Assembly: GCF_046105845.1 (NCBI RefSeq)
Contig: NZ_CP151004.1
Source: Escherichia coli
Lineage (GTDB): Bacteria > Pseudomonadota > Gammaproteobacteria > Enterobacterales > Enterobacteriaceae
Length of the DNA: 64,000 nt
Reading direction: 5' to 3' (one strand)
Part shown: in pieces, positions 1-47,533 of the stretch
Layout: each line of letters opens with the position of its first letter
Numbering within the stretch: the stretch's first letter is position 1
Notes under the pieces: generated by a model
Seen by the model: the letters and a program-made list of their open reading frames with translations, nothing else
Databases searched by the model: none
What the model was told of the DNA's origin: nothing
Made by a program: the position numbers and the translations under genes

Positions 1-1496
1 CGTAAGTCGATATGTTTATTCTTCAGCCAGCTTTGCTGACGCTTCAGTTGCTCCAGCAGCGCACCGCCAACGCCACCGACGCCAATCACAAACACTTCGA
101 TAACCTGATCGGTATTGAACAGCATCTGATGAGTAACGCGCACGCCAGTGGTCGCATCATCGTTATTTACCACGACAGAGATTGAGCGTTCAGAAGATCC
201 CTGAGCAATGGCGACAATGTTGATATTGGCGCGGGCCAGCGCGGCAAAGAATTTCGCCGAGATCCCACGCAAGGTGCGCATACCATCACCTACCACCGAG
301 ATAATGGCCAGCCGTTCCGTCACTGCCAGCGGCTCCAGTAAGCCTTCTTTCAGTTCCAGGTAGAACTCTTCCTGCATTGCCCGTTCAGCTCGCACACAGT
401 CGCTTTGTGGAACGCAGAAACTGATACTGTATTCGGAAGATGATTGCGTAATCAGCACCACGGAAATACGGGCGCGTGACATCGCTGCAAAGACGCGCGC
501 CGCCATGCCAACCATTCCTTTCATCCCCGGGCCGGAAACGCTGAACATTGCCATGTTATTCAGATTGGAAATGCCCTTGACCGGTAATTCGTCTTCATCA
601 CGGCTGGCACCAATGAGCGTACCTGGTGCTTGAGGATTTCCGGTATTTTTAATCAGGCAAGGGATCTGGAACTGGGCGATGGGGGTAATGGTGCGGGGGT
701 GAAGAACTTTAGCGCCGAAGTAGGAAAGCTCCATCGCTTCCTGGTAGGACATCGACTTCAACAACCTCGCATCGGGCACCTGACGCGGGTCGCAGGTATA
801 GACCCCGTCAACGTCCGTCCAAATCTCGCAACAATCGGCGCGTAAACAGGCAGCCAGCACCGCCGCGGAGTAGTCGGAACCGTTGCGTCCAAGTACCACC
901 AGTTCGCCTTTTTCATTACCGGCGGTGAAACCTGCCATCAGCACCATGTGATCAGCCGGAATACGACTTGCCGCAATACGGCGGGTGGACTCAGCAATAT
1001 CGACGGTAGATTCGAGGTAATGCCCCACTGCCAGCAGTTTTTCGACCGGATCGATAACGGTAACGTTGTGACCGCGCGCTTCTAATACGCCGGCCATAAT
1101 GGCGATCGACATTTTCTCGCCACGGCAAATCAGCGCAGCGTTGATGCTATCCGGGCACTGCCCTAACAAACTAATGCCATGCAGGACATGTTTTATTTGG
1201 GCAAATTCCTGGTCGACGAAAGTTTTCAGTTGCGCCAGCGGGAATCCCGGCTGGGCGGCGGCGAGTCCCGTCAGAAGTTCGGCAAAAATACGTTCGGCAT
1301 CGCTGATATTGGGTAAAGCATCCTGGCCGCTAATGGTTTTTTCAATCATCGCCACCAGGTGGTTGGTTATTTTGGCGGGGGCAGAGAGGACGGTGGCCAC
1401 CTGCCCCTGCCTGGCATTGCTTTCCAGAATATCGGCAACCCGCAGAAAACGTTCTGCATTTGCCACTGATGTACCGCCGAACTTCAACACTCGCAT
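1..1496 (-). CDS. thrA: Bifunctional aspartokinase I / homoserine dehydrogenase I, 5' part (gene runs off window start)
   Basis: Minus-strand translation begins [17 protein letters not shown], immediately downstream of the thr leader; start codon rc at 1494-1496. Confidence 0.93.
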
Positions 1497-3953: not shown

Positions 3954-5306
3954 TTATTTCCAGATACGTAATTCATCGTCCGTTGTAACTTCTTTACTGG
4001 CTTTCATTTTCGGCAGTGAAAACGCATACCAGTCGATATTACGGGTCACAAACATCATGCCGGCCAGCGCCACCACCAGCACACTGGTTCCCAACAACAG
4101 CGCGCTATCGGCAGAGTTGAGCAGTCCCCACATCACACCATCCAGCAACAACAGCGCGAGGGTAAACAACATGCTGTTGCGCCAGCCTTTCAATACCGCC
4201 TGCAAATAAATACCGTTCATTAACGCCCCAATCAGACTGGCGATTATCCATGCCACGGTAAAACCGATATGTTCAGAAAGCGCCAGCAAGAGCAAATAAA
4301 ACATCACCAATGAAAGCCCCACCAGCAAATATTGCATTGGGTGTAAACGTTGCGCGGTGAGCGTTTCAAAAACAAAGAACGCCATAAAAGTCAGTGCAAT
4401 CAGCAGAATGGCGTACTTAGTCGCCCGGTCAGTTAATTGGTATTGATCGGCTGGCGTCGTTACTGCGACGCTAAACGCCGGGAAGTTTTCCCAGCCGGTA
4501 TCATTGCCTGAAGCAAAACGCTCACCGAGATTATTAGCAAACCAGCTGCTTTGCCAGTGCGCCTGAAAACCTGACTCGCTAACTTCCCGTTTGGCTGGTA
4601 GAAAATCACCTAAAAAACTGGGATGCGGCCAGTTGCTGGTTAAGGTCATTTCGCTATTACGCCCGCCAGGCACCACAGAAAGATCGCCGGTACCGCTTAA
4701 ATTCAGGGCCATATTCAGCTTCAGGTTCTGCTTCCGCCAGTCCCCTTCAGGTAAAGGGATATGCACGCCCTGCCCGCCTTGCTCTAACCCGGTGCCGGGT
4801 TCAATGGTCAGCGCCGTTCCGTTAACTTCAGGCGCTTTCACCACACCAATACCACGCGCATCCCCGACGCTAATCACAATAAATGGCTTGCCTAAGGTGA
4901 TATTTGGCGCGTTGAGTTCGCTAAGACGCGAAACATCGAAATCGGCTTTTAGCGTTAAATCACTGTGCCAGACCTGACCGGTATAAATCCCTATCTTGCG
5001 TTCTTCCACGTTCTGATTGCCATCAACCATCAATGACTCAGGTAACCAAAAATGGATAAAACTTCGTTTCCGCTCCACGGTTTTATCCTCTTCCTGCACC
5101 GTATAAAGCTCGGTCACAGGAATAGCGATGAGCGGCCCAACGAGTTTTTGCGGCCCGCTGGTACTTTGGCGAATCGCATCTTCCACATCGCTACGGTAAT
5201 CAGCACGTTCGACAATCACCTGCCGAATCAGCATTATCGGAATCAACAACAGCAATACTGCACCAAACAGGGTGGTCATTTTCCAGAACAGGGGGGATTT
5301 CAACAT
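3954..5306 (-). CDS. creD: Inner membrane protein CreD (450 aa)
   Basis: ORF track; position downstream of creC; multi-TM hydrophobic C-terminal half. Confidence 0.88.
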   Translation of the reverse strand: MLKSPLFWKMTTLFGAVLLLLIPIMLIRQVIVERADYRSDVEDAIRQSTSGPQKLVGPLIAIPVTELYTVQEEDKTVERKRSFIHFWLPESLMVDGNQNVEERKIGIYTGQVWHSDLTLKADFDVSRLSELNAPNITLGKPFIVISVGDARGIGVVKAPEVNGTALTIEPGTGLEQGGQGVHIPLPEGDWRKQNLKLNMALNLSGTGDLSVVPGGRNSEMTLTSNWPHPSFLGDFLPAKREVSESGFQAHWQSSWFANNLGERFASGNDTGWENFPAFSVAVTTPADQYQLTDRATKYAILLIALTFMAFFVFETLTAQRLHPMQYLLVGLSLVMFYLLLLALSEHIGFTVAWIIASLIGALMNGIYLQAVLKGWRNSMLFTLALLLLDGVMWGLLNSADSALLLGTSVLVVALAGMMFVTRNIDWYAFSLPKMKASKEVTTDDELRIWK

Positions 5307-38095: not shown

Positions 38096-38686
38096 ATGTC
38101 TCGAATTTTTGCTTACTGTCGGATATCAACGCTGGATCAGACCACCGAAAATCAACGCCGGGAAATCGAAAGTGCAGGTTTTAAAATCAAACCTCAGCAA
38201 ATAATCGAAGAACACATTAGCGGCTCAGCAGCAACCAGTGAGCGTCCTGGTTTTAACCGGTTGCTTGCTCGCCTGAAATGTGGTGATCAATTGATTGTGA
38301 CAAAACTGGATCGCCTTGGTTGTAATGCAATGGATATCAGGAAAACAGTGGAACAACTGACCGAAACAGGTATCAGAGTGCATTGCTTAGCATTGGGGGG
38401 CATTGACCTGACCAGTCCAACAGGAAAAATGATGATGCAAGTAATTTCAGCAGTCGCTGAATTTGAACGAGACCTTTTACTTGAACGCACTCATTCCGGG
38501 ATAGTAAGAGCCCGGGGCGCAGGGAAACGTTTTGGTCGACCACCTGTGTTAAATGAAGAACAGAAACAGGTGGTATTCGAACGGATTAAGTCAGGTGTAA
38601 GTATAAGTGCCATTGCCCGGGAATTCAAAACCTCGCGGCAAACCATTTTAAGAGCCAAAGCAAAACTTCAGACACCTGACATATAA
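38096..38686 (+). CDS. Serine recombinase / DNA invertase of the PinR/PinQ type (196 aa)
   Basis: ORF track; catalytic-Ser N-terminus [17 protein letters not shown] motif, C-terminal HTH; adjacent to tail-fibre genes. Confidence 0.85.
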
Positions 38687-38783: not shown

Positions 38784-39359
38784 CTACGGCAGTGCTGGCC
38801 ATTCAATATCCTGTGCAGTTGACGTATCAACACGGTTCAGCAATACCCGATACTTTTTCCATGCTTCCAGCAACGAGATTTCTTCCTCCGTTGCAATTTC
38901 CAGATCTGCAGCATCCTGAAGCGGCGCAATATGCTCACTGGCTACCTGCATCAGGCTGTTTTTTGTTTCTTCCGCCTCCCGGATCCGGAACAGTTTTTCT
39001 GCTTCTGCATCTTTCACCCAGGCTGTGCCGTTCCACTTCTGAAACTCCCCTTCCGGCGATAACCAGGTAACATTTTCCGGTAACGGACCGAGTTCAGAAA
39101 TAAATAACGCGTCCCCTGACGCTACGTCATAAACCGTTTTACCCCGATGGTCTTCAACGAGATGCCACGATGCCTCATCACTGTTGAAAACAGCCACGAA
39201 GCCTGCCGGAATATCTGGCGGTGCAATATCGGTACTGTTTGCTGGCAGACCTGTATGAGGCGGAATATATGCGTCACCTTCACCAATAAATTCATTAGTT
39301 CCGGCCAGCAGATTATAAATTTTTATGGTCCGTGGTTGTTCACTCATTCTGAATGCCAT
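38784..39359 (-). CDS. Tail fibre assembly protein (Tfa), 191 aa
   Basis: ORF track; immediately downstream of side tail fibre gene; Tfa-like size. Confidence 0.8.
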
Positions 39360-42300
39360 TATGCAAGCCTCACAATGTAGTTAAATGCGATGTTTTTGAC
39401 GGTGTTTTCCGCGTTACCAGCAGCGTTAACGGTGATAGTGTGTCCATGTGAGCCAATCGCAACAGAGTGCGTATGAGCACCAATACCGACAGTATGTGCG
39501 TGAGCACCTGCAGATGCGGCTGTGCCGCTAACACTATGAGTGTGCGCTCCTGCAGCACTTGTATTCACACTGGCCGCAGACACTACCTTATGTACTGACC
39601 CATTTTGTGACCACTGGCTGACTGCTGATGCGCCTGTGACACTATGAGTATGGTTTCCGGCACTTGCGGCTGTACCGCTCACACTGTGCGTATGCGCCCC
39701 GGTGTTATTCGTGGATTTAGTGCCGTAATCAAACGACGATGTGGTTTTCGTCCCCAAATCCGTACTGGATGCGCTGGCGCTGTGGGTGTGCGATTTAATG
39801 CCGTCCTGTTCCTGAGACAATACGGCCCGACCACTGGCAGGTTTGCCCTTAATCGTCCAGCTACGCATATCAGGGATCACGCCTGACGGATAAGCGGCTG
39901 CAAGTTTCGGGTATGCAGATTTGTCAAAAGTCTGCCCCTGCATCAGGGCATAACCAGACGGAACGGTATCTGATGGCCACGGGATTGGTGCGCCGACTGG
40001 GTAGCTTTCTGGTGGAAGATTTTTCGAGGTATAAACTTCTGCCCAGTCTTCCTCAAAACCATAGCCATCTCTTGAGGAACGGTAGAACAGACCTCCATTT
40101 CTGTAATGCGCCTTCATCTGCAGGGTCCGGCAACTTCCGACTCCGGTATAGAAGTTAACCAGAATATAGCTGTCGCCAGAGCGGGTGACATTGTAAGCGC
40201 CTGATTCGGCATTCCATGGAACGCCCCCATCCGCATCGGCATACGTATCCGTTGCTCTTCTGGCAAAAGCAGCCACATGCGCGGCGGTTAAAGTAATATC
40301 TTTGGAACCATCAAACTCAACACCAGAAACCCGTCTTGGCGTTTGCAGCTTTGTTGCTGTTAATGCATTACCGTTCAGACTTGCGGACAGTTTGGTTCCA
40401 ATAACCAGCTCGCCGGTTGCGTTATCAATAGCAAACGGTCTTAATGTATTCCAGCCACCATAAACATCACCTTGATTGGTAAGCAGCAGGTAAGTTTTAG
40501 CGCCATCATTACGCCATAATGCACCATACTCCCCACCTATCATTCGAATCTGATTACCACCACGCGCTACAATTTCGTCTGTGGCAAAAAGTTTTTTGCA
40601 CGACAAGTTATCGTTAACGATTAACGAATGAGACTCATAAAAACCACGCCCACTCTTAAAATCAAGGATAACGTCCGCCGCGATACATTCAGTCGCTGGA
40701 TTTGTTGCCCCAAACTTATAGGTCGTATCATTAACAACGAGATCAGCACCAGGTGCGGATATTGACAGGCCATCTTCGATAAACGCAAAAACAGGGAAAG
40801 CAGCGCCATCAACATAGAACACAGAGCGCAAATCATCGCCCTTATTACTCATCATTATTGAGTGGATGGCTCGTTCATTGTTTTGATATTGCCAGAACAT
40901 TCCATAAGCATAACGCCCCCTGTCAGTCCAGCCACCAGGCATAACAAATCCGTTAAACTCGCAGTTATTCATCGGATCGCCTGCGGTTCGCGTTGCCGTG
41001 GTGATAATGACCCTTGATGCCAGTTCGCTTACTGAGCCAGCAGAACGCATAACAACAACAGGGTAATATTTTCCAGATGTTGCACCTGCAGGAGCGTTAA
41101 CCCGCACATAACGCATACCACGCTTATCAGCAAAGTCTGTTTTACTGACCGCGTTAATGTTGTTCAGGAAGCGTCCCTTATCGGGTATATCAGCGCCGTT
41201 CTGGTCTTTCTGCAGACGTTTCTCTGCATTGTCATAGGCTGATTTTACTGCCTTTGGCGTTGCCGCCAGCGTTTCAGACGTACTGTTGGTCGCACTGCTG
41301 AGCTGTACTATCCCCTTTTTCGTCGTGCTCGCATCCTCAAGCGCCACGGCGGATGCAATATCCTCTGCCCGTTTTGCCGCTGTCTCAGCGCGCGTTGCTG
41401 CAGATTCCGCCGTACTTTTGCTCTGAGCTGCTGCCGTCGCACTACCAGCAGCCTCTGTCGCCTTCGTGGATGCCGTCGTGGCGCTGCCCTTCGCTGCTGA
41501 CGCCTGTCTGGTCGCCTCATCTTTTGAAGCAGACGCCGATGAGGCCGATGACGCCGCCGAACTGGCGGACGATGCCGCTGCCGTTTTTGAGGATTCTGCA
41601 CGGGTTTCCGACGCTTTCGCGTTCGTTTCGGATGTCTTCGCTGCGGAAGCTGACCTCGCTGCTGCCGTGGCCTGCTCAGTGGCTTCGCCAGCCTTCGTTG
41701 TGGCTGTTGAAGCGGATGATGCGGCGCTTTCTGCCGATTTTCCGGCGGCGGTGGCACTGACTGAGGCCTGCCCGGCACTTGTTGACGCGGCACTGGCAGA
41801 CGACGCAGCCGCTGTTTTTGAGCCTGCCGCAGCTGAGGCGCTCTGTCCCGCTGCCGTCTCAGAAGACCTGGCGTTCGTCTCGGACGTTTTTGCCGCCTTC
41901 GCGGAATTTCCTGCCGCCGTTGCCGAGGAAGCTGCGCTGCTGGCGCTCGAGGCTGCGTTCGTTTCTGATGATTTTGCCGCCTCTTTTGAAGCCGACGCAT
42001 CCCGTGCTGAAGTGGCTGCTTCTGACGCTTTCGTGGTCGCGGTGGATGCAGAAGTGGCTGCTGATTGTTGTGACGCTGCCGCATTCGTTTCTGACGTTTT
42101 CGCCGCACCGGCACTGGTAGCCGCCGCGCTTTTTGAGGACTCTGCAGCGGCAGCACTTTTTGATGCTTCAGTGGCCTTTGCTGATGCCGTTCCTGCGCTG
42201 GAAGACGCTGACTGAGCCGACGACGCGGCCTGTCCGGCTGACGTGCTGGCTGCGCGTGCTGAGCCTGCAGCATCAGTCGCATGGGTTGCCGCCTCACGGG

Positions 42301-42718
42301 CTGATGTGCTGGCATTGCTGGCTGACTTCTTCGCGGCTGCTGTGTTCTGTGCCACCGCGGACGCGTTACGCGCCACCTCTTCCACCATCAGTTCAAAACG
42401 TCGCAGTGCCTCCGGACGGGTATCATCCTCCGTCATGGCACCGAGAAAATCATTCAGCGTACCGGGTTGAGAATCTTCATACACGGTGATGGTCCCGGCA
42501 TGTGACGGCGGGAATCCCTCCACCAACAGAATAACGCTGTACTGACCGTACTCAACGTCCATACTGTAACGCCCGGCTTCATCCGGATTTTCTGAGGCCA
42601 GCGTGTTCACCACCACAGTGGTACTGTTACGTTTTGCTTTCAGCTGGATTGTGCAGTTCTGTACCGGTTTTCCTGTGCCGTCTTTCAGTACACCTGAAAT
42701 CTTTACTGCCATATTCAC
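39359..42718 (-). CDS. Lambdoid side tail fibre protein (Stf-like), 1119 aa with long Ala/Ser/Thr-rich low-complexity region
   Basis: ORF track; N-terminus [17 protein letters not shown] typical of Stf; StfR-like length. Confidence 0.8.
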
Positions 42719-42776: not shown

Positions 42777-43376
42777 TCAGAATTTATAACCGACACCCAC
42801 GATGAAACCGTCAGTGCGCCAGTCACCACTGCCGGAGCCTTCATAAGCAATATCAATGGCCACGGATTCGGTCGGGTTAAACTGCACGCCAGCCCCCCAC
42901 GCCAGAGACGTGTTGCTGTGGCGACCGTCATCACTTCCGGTCAGCACATCGTGCGTTTTCCCCTTGTTGTCAGTTACGCGGAGATAATCCCCGGAGAAAG
43001 TCGACACACGGCTGTAAGCCACACCCGCCATCGCATACGCGCTGAACCATTCATTCACGCGTACAGACGGCCCCGCCATCACGCTGAACCAGCGGTTACG
43101 CACTGAATCTTCATGCCAGCGGGTATCGCTGTAACGGGTAAGCTGGCGATTCTTGTCTCCTGCATAGCTGAATGACGTCACCAGCCCCAGTGTGTCCGTA
43201 AACTCATAACGGTATTTCACGTTAATCCCGTTCAGATCATCGCTGCCGGAAACGTTCGTCGAGGCATGAAGATAGCCCGCGCTCAGCGTGGACTGATGTT
43301 CAGACGCCCATGCAGGCGCACCGGATACGGCCAGACAGATGGCTGCGGACAAAATGGTGGCATAAAGTTTACGCAT
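42777..43376 (-). CDS. Lom/Ail-family outer membrane beta-barrel protein (199 aa)
   Basis: ORF track; signal peptide, C-terminal ...VGVGYKF beta-barrel terminus; lambda lom position between J and stf. Confidence 0.8.
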
Positions 43377-43442: not shown

Positions 43443-44948
<1,506 letters not shown>

Positions 44949-47232
44949 GTTGCTGGTTTTTCTGGCGAAGACTCAGTTGTACCTGATATCGCTGCCGCTG
45001 CTGATCACCCATACCCACCGTGGCGATATCCAGGTCATGTTGCTGACGCTGAGCGCGCTCTTCTTCAGCCAGTTGACTGGTCAGCTGAATTGTTTTTTTC
45101 TTCAGATCGTTGAGTGCCGTCTGTTTCTGAAGCTCCTGCTGTTTTACATCCAGCAGCATCAGTGCCTGAATCAGTTCATCTTTACGGGCCAGCACACTCT
45201 TTTCATCTGTCGTCAGTTTTTTCCCGTCCAGATCGCTGATGCGCTGCTGCAGAGCCAGAAGCTGTTTATGCGCTTCTGTCATCTTTTCAGTGGCAATGCC
45301 TGCTGACTGTCTTGCAGCAGCAATCTGTCCTTCCACCTGTGCCTGTTGCTGACTGTACTGCAGCAATAACCGGGTGGCCTCATCATTACGGGTTTCGCGT
45401 GTTTTTTTCTTACCGGATGCCAGGGCTTTCTCGTAACGTTCATTTTCACGTTGTATCGCTGCATCCCTGACAGCCTGATCGGCGTACTGCATGGAATTAA
45501 TACGCGCAATTTCACGCTGATGTCGTGCTGCTTCCGATTCATTCATCCGGTTCAGTGCAGCATTTTCAGCATTACGTCGTTTCTGTTGCTCCTGATAATT
45601 CCGCTCTGCCTGCTCTTTTGCATCCTGCAAATCCTTCTGGCGTTTTTTCTCCTGAAGATCGTTAAGACGCTGCTGATCGTATTCAACCTGAGAAGATGAT
45701 GCCGTCCAGGGGAGTCTTTTCGCCCGCGACACTTTCTCCTGTAAAGCGGCAATCTGTTCATCCAGCGAGTCTTCACGACCAATATTCATGGCCGCATCCC
45801 AGAAACGACTCCACAAATCAGACAGATACTTCAGCGTACTGCCAAGCGCATTGAGGTTATTATCAATATCCGCAGTACGCCGACCGGTTTCCTCTGCCAG
45901 TGCAGACATGGCTATCCGTGCAGCATCACTGGACCGTCCCTGATCCCCAAGGACACGTATCTGCTCAAGCTGAGTGGCAGTAAGAAAATGCAGCTCATTG
46001 TCCAGAGCCTTCGCGGCATTTACAGGATCATCCTTCAGCCGCTTAAACTGACTTATGGTATCGCTGACCGACTGGCCAACCGATCGCTCCATCTGTGCGG
46101 CAGCTCTCGCCACCATACCGATATCGTTTCCACGAAATGCGCCACTCCCCACCACCTGAGCCAGCGCACCGGCTGCAGCATGTTGCGTGATACCATTCCC
46201 GGAAATAGCACGACTGAGCGTCCACAGCTGCCCGGCAGTGACTCCGGCATAATGCCCCGTCAGCGACAACTGGCGGTTAAATTCTTCCCCCTCCTTCTGA
46301 CCATCATACCAGGCTTTACCCAGACCATAGACGGCCGCGGCAATACCGCCAATAACCCCGCCCAGCATCATGCCTTTCGGTGACATCAGTGTGTCTATCC
46401 ATCCGGCACGGTTAGCCAGCGTTATCCCGGATCCCCTCAGCGCACCTAAATTGCCGCGAACCAGTTCACCTATCAGAACGCCTATCTCCTGGCGGGCCGC
46501 TGCACTTTTCAGCCCCAGCGAATGCGTGGCTTTTCCTGCCTGCTCCATTTTGCGGATATACACTTCTGCAGCACTGCTTACCCCCAGCTGGGCAGCCTTA
46601 GCACGAAGCAACTCAGAAGAAGAAAGATTCTGGCGGGTTGCCTGCTCTTTAAGCTGACGGATAAACGCCACTTTCTGTCGGGTAGCCTCTGCCTCAGCCT
46701 GCGTAAGAACACGGGTTTTCGCCGTAACCTCAGAAATCAGCGCCAGATAATCCTGCTGACCAATCCCGCCACTGTTTCTGGCCTGTCGGATCTGCTGCTG
46801 AATACGCTGTAATTCCTGCAGCCCCGCACTGGCCTGTTTCACACTGTCAATCTGACGATAAAACGCGGCAGCCGCTTTATCCTGAGCCTCCGCCAGAGCC
46901 ATGGCCTGCGCCTGTTCCTCACGCATTTTCTGGCTCAGTGCCTCCATACGCTGGCGGGTTTGCTCCACCTCGCGGGCCATGCGTTCATGAGCCTGTGCGC
47001 TCTTCTCCACCGTCTGCGCATGGACGGATGCGGCTGTTGCAGCCGAAGAAGCCGCCTGCATTGTCTGCCGGGCGGCCTGAGTCTGACGCTCCATAAAACG
47101 CTGCATACGGGCAGAAGACCGTTCTGCATCGCTGGCTGCACCATTCAGAAGGTTTTTGATACGGGGAATTTCATTTTTAAACTCTGCCGCATCAATCCCC
47201 AAATCAATGACCAGGTTGGCTATCTGGTCCAT
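44949..47232 (-). pseudogene. Lambda H-like tail tape-measure gene, 3' end truncated by the IS insertion
   Basis: ORF track 44944..47262; reading frame continues to the IS boundary and stops 1-2 codons inside the IS; coiled-coil rich, overlaps gpT end. Confidence 0.7.
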
Positions 47233-47533
47233 AACGCACACCTCCGGAAATACCTTCCCCAAGATGCATCAGTTCTTCGTCCGTTCGCTCCGGTATCCCG
47301 TTCTCTTCCGGTAAAAGGCTGAAATCAGCCACCGCAGCATCACTGCTACCGGACACCATTCTCACGATCAATGCCTTCAGCGAGGCAAACTGCGCATCCA
47401 TCCACACATCACTGAAGCTCTGCATCCGGAAATAATCGCCCCACTCACCAAGCTCAGTGGCCGACATTTCCGACAGCATCCGCCGCCAGTCTGCCCGTCG
47501 GAACTCCCGGGCAAGCCGCATGACAAACTGCAT
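47204..47533 (-). CDS. Tail assembly chaperone T portion (expressed as G-T fusion by -1 frameshift)
   Basis: ORF track; -1 frame relative to G, open from within the last codons of G; candidate slippery GGAAAAG (plus-strand 47548-47554). Confidence 0.6.
   Translation of the reverse strand: MQFVMRLAREFRRADWRRMLSEMSATELGEWGDYFRMQSFSDVWMDAQFASLKALIVRMVSGSSDAAVADFSLLPEENGIPERTDEELMHLGEGISGGVRYGPDSQPGH

Follow-up and report, generated by a model that had tools for sequence, protein, structure and literature searches.

A probable 51-heptad coiled-coil shaft in a lambda/Rac-type side tail fibre gene of Escherichia coli

The side tail fibre protein (Stf) of Ur-lambda, studied by cryo-EM and AF3, is a trimer with an N-terminal collar (residues 1-91), a linker (92-101) and a proximal coiled coil (102-393), and the side fibre is seen as a rod with a trimeric bundle; the role of the collar is described for the same phage (PMC12617516). 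In the EHEC prophage collagen-like fibres EPclA and EPclB, experiment has shown the PCoil, with its Ala/Ser heptads, to be a helical trimer, and the PCoil domains of E. coli prophages were already noted to differ in length by multiples of seven (Ghosh et al. 2012, PMC3368898). The proximal coiled coil of Stf is thus already known from these two studies.

Here we analyse a 64,000-nucleotide stretch of E. coli DNA (the window; assembly GCF_046105845.1, contig NZ_CP151004.1), in which a sequence-only reading had described a repetitive Ala/Ser/Thr-rich region at 40300-42400 within an Stf-like gene. The Ala/Ser/Thr-rich tract is real and very probably forms the proximal coiled-coil shaft of a lambda/Rac-type side fibre, a spacer between the collar and the distal domains (Table 1). 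The array is an ordinary, well-conserved structural module of a kind already described, and not an unstable DNA repeat.

Table 1. Features of the side tail fibre gene, its neighbours and the overlapping open reading frames, in window coordinates
Feature	Coordinates	Strand	Details
J C-terminus	43443-43742		upstream end of the J'-lom-stf-tfa-pin order
lom (Ail/Lom outer membrane protein)	42777..43376	-	PF06316, E = 3.7e-119; usual upstream neighbour of stf
stf, lambda/Rac-type side tail fibre gene	39359..42712	-	1117 aa from ATG 'MAVKISG'
N-terminal collar (PfN) domain and short linker	42413..42712	-	PF08400, E = 2.8e-71, residues 3-136
Probable proximal coiled-coil rod, 51 uninterrupted heptads	41342..42412	-	residues 103-459, 357 aa, consensus x-S-A-x-x-A-x
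Phage_fiber_2 (Pf2)-type motif	41234..41317	-	just after the rod; its 11-residue anchor sequence at residue 469
T4 gp34-like trimerisation domain, distal fibre	40427..40726	-	PF21446, E = 3.4e-27, residues 665-764
Receptor-binding tip, T4 gp37 needle homologue (His-x-His repeats)	39362..40009	-	PF07484, PF03335
tfa, tail fibre assembly chaperone	38784..39359	-	PF02413, E = 2.1e-43
Shadow ORF, 335 aa, Arg/Pro/Gln-rich	41308..42315	-	shifted frame of the stf strand
Shadow ORF, 249 aa, Ala/Asp/Val/Phe-rich	41466..42215	+	antisense

The side tail fibre gene and its relatives

The stf protein matches four Pfam families (PF08400, PF21446, PF07484 and PF03335) and combines the characters of lambda/Rac-type side tail fibres, namely the PF08400 collar, the proximal heptads, a gp37-like tip with Tfa, and the gene order J'-lom-stf-tfa-pin, in which J-lom-stf-tfa is common to lambda and other E. 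coli prophages. Sequence places it among the lambda-type side tail fibre genes, and the earlier description of it as Stf-like is borne out by the collar match, the T4 gp37-like tip and the adjoining Tfa chaperone gene. Its open reading frame runs on to a GTG at 42718 in the ORF listing; the ATG is the start in homologues and in the RefSeq annotation. Over its first 1519 nt the gene shows 100% identity to E. coli O145 RM9872, and 95.9% to the stfR of K-12-like strains.

The collar is matched by residues 1-94 of PDB 9e7m/9mgh ('Tail fiber protein', E = 6e-52), and the collar and linker are the predicted attachment of the fibre to the tail. Mu tail fibre S (PDB 5yvq) matches residues 443-523, and for the Pf2-type motif PF03406 is a precomputed Pfam assignment on homologues. 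The gp34-like domain is matched by PDB 4uxe/5nxf and is non-repetitive, although it falls within 40300-42400, and the tip is matched by PDB 2xgf (E = 1.2e-87, residues 904-1119).

The prophage that carries this gene lies next to prfC and has been interrupted by an IS3-family insertion element, and most of its tail-tip genes are missing in this window, so that this copy of stf may never form part of an assembled fibre. A search for inverted repeats, or for an invertible tfa-stf cassette tied to the adjacent pin invertase, returned two chance-level pairs only.

Lambda and Ur-lambda Stf share with this protein the collar domain (91% identity over 116 aa; PDB 9e7m/9mgh), Ala/Ser/Thr heptads from residue ~101 and the same end junction, with ~85% nucleotide identity over the shared heptads. 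Lambda Stf differs in having 36 heptads rather than 51, being otherwise colinear up to the Pf2-type junction apart from a 15-heptad block, and in its total length (774 aa vs 1117 aa), the present protein having a Rac-type central region and a gp34-like domain beyond the junction. StfR of the E. coli K-12 Rac prophage (P76072) is colinear over the N-terminal 1560 nt without an indel, has 51 heptads with 95% identity in the array, and is followed by tfaR, with pinR in related strains too; it is 1120 aa long, and the differences are C-terminal, outside the array. The P76072 entry is annotated as 'prophage tail fiber N-terminal domain-containing protein'. The Rac gene also differs in its prophage context, the present one having prfC as a neighbour and the IS3-family disruption.

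T4 fibre shafts are beta-structured and are not known to be alpha-helical coiled coils. The distal domains of the present protein are homologous to those of the T4 long tail fibre proteins gp34 and gp37 (PF21446; tip 2xgf), whereas the PDB matches to T4 fibre proteins are confined to these domains and none falls on the heptad array. The PCoil of EPclA/EPclB likewise follows PF08400 and is Ala/Ser-rich with a seven-residue periodicity, but it is much shorter (about 110-145 residues, ~16 nm), contains more Glu and leads into a collagen triple helix (PMC3368898), where the present protein has the Pf2 motif and gp34/gp37-like domains. The Ala-rich coiled coils of honeybee silk and Plasmodium vivax MSP3 offer an analogy only, in their heptads, Ala-dominated cores and low-complexity composition, and differ in oligomeric state and biology.

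Strict heptads in the protein, weak repeats in the DNA

The repetition is confined to the upper half of the region first described, and the flagged ~1 kb at 40300-41340 encodes ordinary fibre domains without repeats. Lying directly after the PF08400 collar and covering about 9-41% of the protein, the array is N-proximal rather than central, as it had been called. Nor is it unordered low-complexity sequence: a single heptad phase holds without a break across residues 102-462, residue identity reaches 0.42 at lag 7 (z = 10.4 relative to 500 shuffles), and z = 8-10 persists to lag 56. Position 6 is Ala in 47/51 heptads, position 2 is Ser in 37/51 and position 3 is Ala in 35/51; Ala, Ser and Thr together account for 255 of the 349 residues between 117 and 465 (73%), and proline is absent from all 51 heptads. 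Heptad periodicity, small or apolar core residues and a lack of helix breakers, the characters expected of a coiled coil, are therefore found together.

In the DNA, the GC-rich imperfect nucleotide repeats described earlier are very weak. GC content is indeed 62% in the array (50% in the rest of stf, 52% in the whole window), but the 21-nt units average only 42% identity (45% between adjacent units). Tandem Repeats Finder is essentially empty, reporting two arrays only in the region, of 25-30 nt each, and the longest direct repeat without mismatch measures 12 nt, where codon shuffles would give 12.3. The direct-repeat search returned degenerate families only, with spacings mostly in multiples of 21 nt, and the analysis was therefore carried to the heptads at the protein level. 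The run of GCN, TCN and ACN codons accounts at once for the high GC content, the slight 21-nt periodicity and the lack of stops in other frames.

These properties bear on the main alternative, in which the array is a DNA repeat prone to slippage or recombination, with an easily altered copy number and hence frequent length polymorphism of the fibre. The DNA repeat content equals that of a random synonymous codon assignment to the same protein, and the synonymous-codon shuffle shows neither selection against DNA repeats nor a recent repeat origin; the one departure is a weak surplus of synonymous-codon matches at lags of 7-28 codons (z = 2.9), which speaks for slippage. No higher-order repeat blocks able to drive unequal crossing-over were found in the array, the best 84-nt blocks being ~60% identical. 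Of the characters of a slippage-prone tandem repeat, near-identical DNA units are thus lacking, and so is copy-number polymorphism among close alleles.

Length classes among homologues

Rod length was approximated as the distance from an N-terminal anchor to the first Pf2-type motif as C-terminal anchor, which takes ten values in the family (143, 150, 159, 164, 255, 262, 339, 364, 367 and 370 residues). The length variation anticipated by the sequence-only reading is hence real, and the array is not of identical length in all homologues, because the anchor distances differ among them. Three further apparent classes (411, 423 and 362) were rejected, a later copy of the Pf2 motif having been matched, and correspond to true distances of 367, 367 and 262; the motif is present twice, 44 aa apart, in some homologues. 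For P0147, which is 32 heptads shorter, a heptad-level protein alignment was used, global DNA alignment being unreliable for so short and divergent a partner.

The differences fall mostly into whole heptads. Six of the nine non-reference classes differ by -4, -15, -16, -29, -31 or -32 heptads (P = 4.8e-4 under random phase), the lambda array being exactly 315 nt (15 heptads) shorter, and in family representatives each of the 47 intervals that separate [TS]SETNA submotifs is a multiple of 7. The other three classes are out of phase (-3 and +3 residues in close homologues, -208 residues in one diverged protein), so that the phase is strongly though not invariably conserved. Since the deleted blocks occupy different places in the array, they represent independent events.

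Among close relatives, length is nearly constant. Homologues that are 5%, 6% and 11% diverged show no indel in the array, against 54, 69 and 122 substitutions, respectively. The length is the same in 27/28 colinear matches from a spread sample of complete E. coli genomes, the one exception being a duplicated motif outside the array, and the anchor spacing is the same in 101/106 close protein clusters. Stf-like places number ~16,000 in the 5,426 complete E. coli genomes, alongside 318 phage records. Substitutions in the three homologues are distributed over codon positions 1:2:3 of the stf frame as 8:4:42, 9:9:51 and 21:12:89, and purifying selection evidently acts on the array in this frame.

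The slippage explanation does have the existence of length classes in its favour, together with an 84-nt deletion that has ACGGCAGC as a direct repeat on either side, one close homologue in which AAG has become AAGAAG through a 9-nt tandem duplication, and two with a 3-aa loss within a Ser/Ala run. Set against the lack of a DNA-level substrate, the absence of indels in the three homologues and the equal length of nearly all close clusters, however, it appears unlikely, and the proneness to slipped recombination claimed earlier is not upheld. Since length varies mostly in whole heptads, the variation is attributed to structural selection on rare indels and to mosaic recombination, not to a hypermutable repeat.

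The proposed rod and its use

An AF2 single-sequence monomer model of the array is one continuous helix (fragment residues 9-405, mean pLDDT 71), its confidence being moderate and dipping near fragment residues 160-220 and 295-305. A PDB sequence search returned no solved structure spanning the heptad array. The 73% share of Ala, Ser and Thr and the moderate model confidence might suit a disordered, flexible low-complexity linker, a mucin-like Ser/Thr/Ala spacer in place of a folded rod. This reading is highly improbable in view of the strict single phase over 357 residues with a nearly invariant Ala column, the absence of proline, the continuity of the modelled helix and the indels that keep phase, and given that the homologous PCoil is helical and trimeric (PMC3368898) and the Ur-lambda fibre a rod with a trimeric bundle (PMC12617516).

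The long open reading frames in other frames, which include further ones of 135, 113 and 118 aa, are, as the sequence-only reading had stated, artefacts. Both long shadow ORFs have limits that coincide with the heptad array, and both lack stops because their codons start at, or opposite, the second-position C of Ala, Ser and Thr codons, the 335-aa frame beginning at that C. That either would be a real overlapping gene, as their length and the antisense 'orf206b' in the equivalent place of the lambda GenBank record (an old annotation) might suggest, can be practically dismissed, since frames so placed are unable to hold stops, the four longest shadow ORFs have no Pfam family above threshold (one sub-threshold match in the 249-aa ORF), and substitutions in homologues favour third positions of the stf frame and not those of the shadow frames.

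For the coiled-coil shaft, three copies of the protein would form a parallel left-handed alpha-helical coiled coil across the 51 consecutive heptads, its core filled by small side chains, with Ala at position 6 and Ser or Ala at both position 2 and position 3. Such an Ala/Ser core is unusual and alone would stabilise weakly. At ~0.148 nm per residue, the 357 residues would make a thin rod of roughly 53 nm (calculated), joining the tail-clamping N-terminal collar to a hinge and to distal beta-rich domains that would end in the gp37-like receptor-binding tip, folded with Tfa. The rod would thereby act as a spacer fixing the reach of the tip from the tail; its trimeric state and mechanical role are carried over from the literature on homologues (PMC12617516, PMC3368898). 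Its length differences would stem from rare in-frame indels, one of them bounded by 8 nt of microhomology, and from mosaic recombination among the stf genes of prophages, and the changes retained by selection would mainly be those that keep the heptad phase.

The family ranges from 21 to 51 heptads, or about 22-53 nm (calculated). More speculatively, and with rather low probability, heptad number could serve as an evolvable 'ruler' of fibre reach and the array as a tolerant join at which prophages exchange distal receptor-binding modules, a dual use conceivable because any in-phase crossover or indel in the Ala/Ser array would leave a functional rod. Particular lengths (51 heptads in the Rac/STEC type vs 36 in lambda) might be matched to how thick the host surface layer is or to how long the central J fibre is.

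The finding settles no open question, and it matters mostly for clean annotation and for phage engineering. 'Proximal coiled-coil rod of Stf' is the label that the region should carry, without being masked as low complexity or treated as an unstable repeat, and the open reading frames in other frames should stay uncalled as genes, lambda 'orf206b' being a historical case of such an error. As the rod tolerates whole-heptad changes in length and joins different distal modules, it is useful for the design of chimeric side fibres.

A phased heptad rod in the side tail fibre

The interval 40300-42400, described in the sequence-only reading as the central, low-complexity region of a side tail fibre gene, lies inside one long open reading frame, stf, whose start is the ATG at 42712 ('MAVKISG'; 1117 aa) judging by homologues, a PDB chain and an identical gene annotated in RefSeq; the GTG at 42718, the mechanical ORF start two codons outside it, is probably not the true start. 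Besides the Pfam domains (see table), PDB searches match residues 1-94 to the 9e7m/9mgh 'Tail fiber protein' chain and the final 216 residues to 2xgf, a structure of the T4 gp37 tip (E = 1e-87). The gene order J-lom-stf-tfa is that of lambda, and over its initial 1519 nt stf shows 100% identity to E. coli O145 RM9872 and ~96% to the stfR genes of K-12-like strains. These matches, the neighbour order and the homologues bear out the identification as a side tail fibre gene. Of 5,426 complete E. coli genomes, 4,938 contain sequence similar to a query of the stf start and rod. Some public records (e.g., homologues P0005 and P0012) name tail-fibre fragments 'short-chain fatty acid transporter, partial', apparently a misannotation that has spread through NCBI.

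A sliding composition profile confirms an Ala/Ser/Thr-rich stretch at residues ~117-465 (73% A+S+T; Ala 131, Ser 82 and Thr 42 among 349 residues). Laid out in rows of seven, residues 103-459 form 51 heptads in perfect phase with zero phase breaks, carrying Ala at position 6 (47/51), Ser at position 2 (37/51) and Ala at position 3 (35/51), while proline is absent and glycine occurs 12 times. Identity between residues seven apart is 0.42 (z = 10.4, 500 shuffles), and z is 8-10 at all multiples of 7 up to lag 56. The stretch is thus real but was under-described, being a strictly phased 51-heptad coiled-coil rod rather than generic low complexity. It is also N-proximal in the protein, not central, and the proposed interval reaches too far at its lower end, to about twice the proper width, since 40300-41340 codes for ordinary fibre domains. 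GC content is 62% in the array vs 50% in the remainder of the gene. The best-conserved element at the DNA level (repeat family D2) is the submotif [TS]SETNA, with four copies at residues 208, 250, 278 and 362, each at heptad position 1, and up to six in some homologues; in family representatives, each of the 47 distances from one copy to the next is a multiple of 7.

Coordinates of stf, its domains, neighbours and overlapping reading frames (window positions unless indicated)
Feature	Position	Strand	Remark
stf ORF	39359-42718	-	single long ORF enclosing 40300-42400
PF08400 prophage tail-fibre N-terminal domain	residues 3-136		Pfam, E = 2.8e-71
Heptad array	41342-42412	-	residues 103-459 of stf
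T4 gp34-type trimerisation domain	residues 665-764		Pfam
Collar domain and tail-fibre repeat			in stf product; Pfam
Extra Phage_fiber_2 copies	residues ~460-520		homologues P0045, P0017, P0025, P0001, P0183
Shadow ORF, 335 aa	41308-42315	-	coincides with array
Shadow ORF, 249 aa	41466-42215	+	coincides with array
lambda orf206b	J02459 (L004) 4004-4624	-	historical GenBank ORF antisense to repeat region of orf-401 (stf)
Pin/Gin-type serine invertase gene	38096-38686	+	directly after tfa
tfa (Tfa chaperone gene)	38784-39359		stf neighbour
lom	42777-43376		stf neighbour
J	43443-43742		99 terminal codons only; stf neighbour
IS3-family orfA	43727-44074		between tape-measure gene and J remnant
IS3-family orfB	43894-44940		between tape-measure gene and J remnant
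Tape-measure gene	44944-47262		without 3' end

Shadow reading frames

In Ala, Thr and most Ser codons the second base is C. Each codon of the two shadow ORFs starts on the second position of an stf codon or on its complement (coordinates congruent to 0 mod 3), so that these frames read CNN (Arg/Pro/Gln/His/Leu) or GNN (Ala/Asp/Glu/Val/Gly) and stops are impossible; their amino-acid composition fits this reading. A Pfam search of the two ORFs returned no family, and homologue substitutions favour the third codon position when read in the stf frame (counts at positions 1:2:3 of 8:4:42, 9:9:51, 21:12:89 and 26:22:68). Such long ORFs had been predicted to be artefacts of the repeats, and they are. 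Lambda orf206b is, with near certainty, another such shadow ORF.

Length variation and its DNA substrate

Length variation, also predicted, is found across the wider family, where anchor spacing (N-terminal anchor to the first Pf2-type, i.e., Phage_fiber_2, motif just after the rod) falls into ten classes of 143, 150, 159, 164, 255, 262, 339, 364, 367 and 370 residues. Of the nine classes other than the reference, six depart from it by an integral number of heptads (-32, -31, -29, -16, -15 and -4; P = 4.8e-4 under random phase), and lambda stf has exactly 315 nt (15 heptads) fewer than the window stf. Heptad-level alignment places the absent blocks at differing sites (heptads 36-39, 30-44, 21-36, 15-29 and 9-40), and the events are therefore independent. 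In one homologue, P0116, an 84-nt deletion is flanked by the direct repeat ACGGCAGC, which is consistent with deletion mediated by microhomology.

The array keeps its length among close relatives. Against three E. coli homologues, at array divergences of 5.0%, 6.4% and 11.4%, the 1071 nt differ by 54, 69 and 122 substitutions without a single indel; K-12 StfR likewise has 51 heptads. Length is the same in 27 of 28 colinear matches from a spread sample of complete genomes, the exception (+132 nt) being an extra Pf2-type motif past the array. The reference spacing of 367 residues is kept in 101 of 106 close protein clusters with both anchors, as counted after correcting a pattern-search artefact in anchor spacing; non-reference values are -28 (one), -3 (two) and +3 (one).

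The DNA itself is weakly repetitive. Tandem Repeats Finder reports no more than two trivial arrays (25-30 nt), members of the direct-repeat families share 60-80% identity at spacings that are mainly multiples of 21 nt, and the 51 21-nt units share a mean pairwise identity of 42% (adjacent 45%, maximum 81%). No higher-order block structure was found in the array, the best 84-nt blocks being ~60% identical. Exact direct repeats reach 12 nt at most, vs a mean longest repeat of 12.3 (maximum 18) in codon shuffles, and counts of repeated 9-, 12- and 15-mers equal the expectation of synonymous-codon shuffles with the protein fixed (z = 0.6, -0.6 and -0.3), the sole signal being that identical codons recur slightly more often than expected at short in-phase lags (z = 2.9). 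The DNA repeats are a mere shadow of the protein periodicity, and as a substrate for slipped mispairing or RecA-type unequal exchange the array therefore does not surpass any other sequence of its composition. Together with the stability among close relatives, this contradicts the expectation that the region is prone to slippage.

Some homologues carry the same collar domain followed by a very different rod (charged, or KTSETNAK-rich), and in some the rod leads into wholly different distal domains. Many E. coli matches end at the array start or within it (query positions 356 and 848), the signature of mosaic recombination. The query of stf N-terminus and rod matches at 11 places in the single genome of E. 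coli O145 RM9872 (match H1) and at two in the median E. coli genome; paralogous prophage stf genes are therefore abundant potential partners for such recombination. The Phage_fiber_2 motif (...TPKAVK), present once in the window Stf, occurs in two or three copies 44-56 aa apart in some close homologues, and its copy number is a second, independent source of length variation outside the array.

Prophage setting and role of the rod

The prophage is defective in its tail-tip module (window 43443-47262), from which genes M, L, K and I and the greater part of J are absent; E. coli O145 RM9872 has an identical stf, with a complete J beside it, at the same prfC-adjacent site. An invertase gene follows tfa directly, as pinR does in Rac, but neither inverted repeats nor an alternative tfa/stf C-terminal cassette forming an invertible host-range segment was found, and the invertase therefore looks orphaned in the window.

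AF2, run on the single sequence of residues 95-500, models an unbroken helix (positions 9-405 of the fragment, mean pLDDT 71); in the PDB sequence search, no solved structure covers the array itself. In Ur-lambda each side fibre is an Stf trimer, and twelve collar domains encircle the gpV/gpM junction (PMC12617516). Ghosh et al. described, after PF08400 in EHEC prophage fibres, a 'PCoil' region equivalent to the rod, an Ala/Ser-rich low-complexity sequence with seven-residue periodicity (PMC3368898), and the lambda side tail fibre had appeared in a 2005 survey of long coiled-coil proteins in prokaryotes (PMC1322226). All the essentials are already in the literature, among them the coiled-coil nature, trimeric state and multiples-of-seven length differences. 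The calculated rod length is ~53 nm (357 residues at ~0.148 nm per residue), the lambda rod being ~15-16 nm shorter by residue count, and the rod would most likely act as a rigid spacer holding the receptor-binding tip away from the tail.
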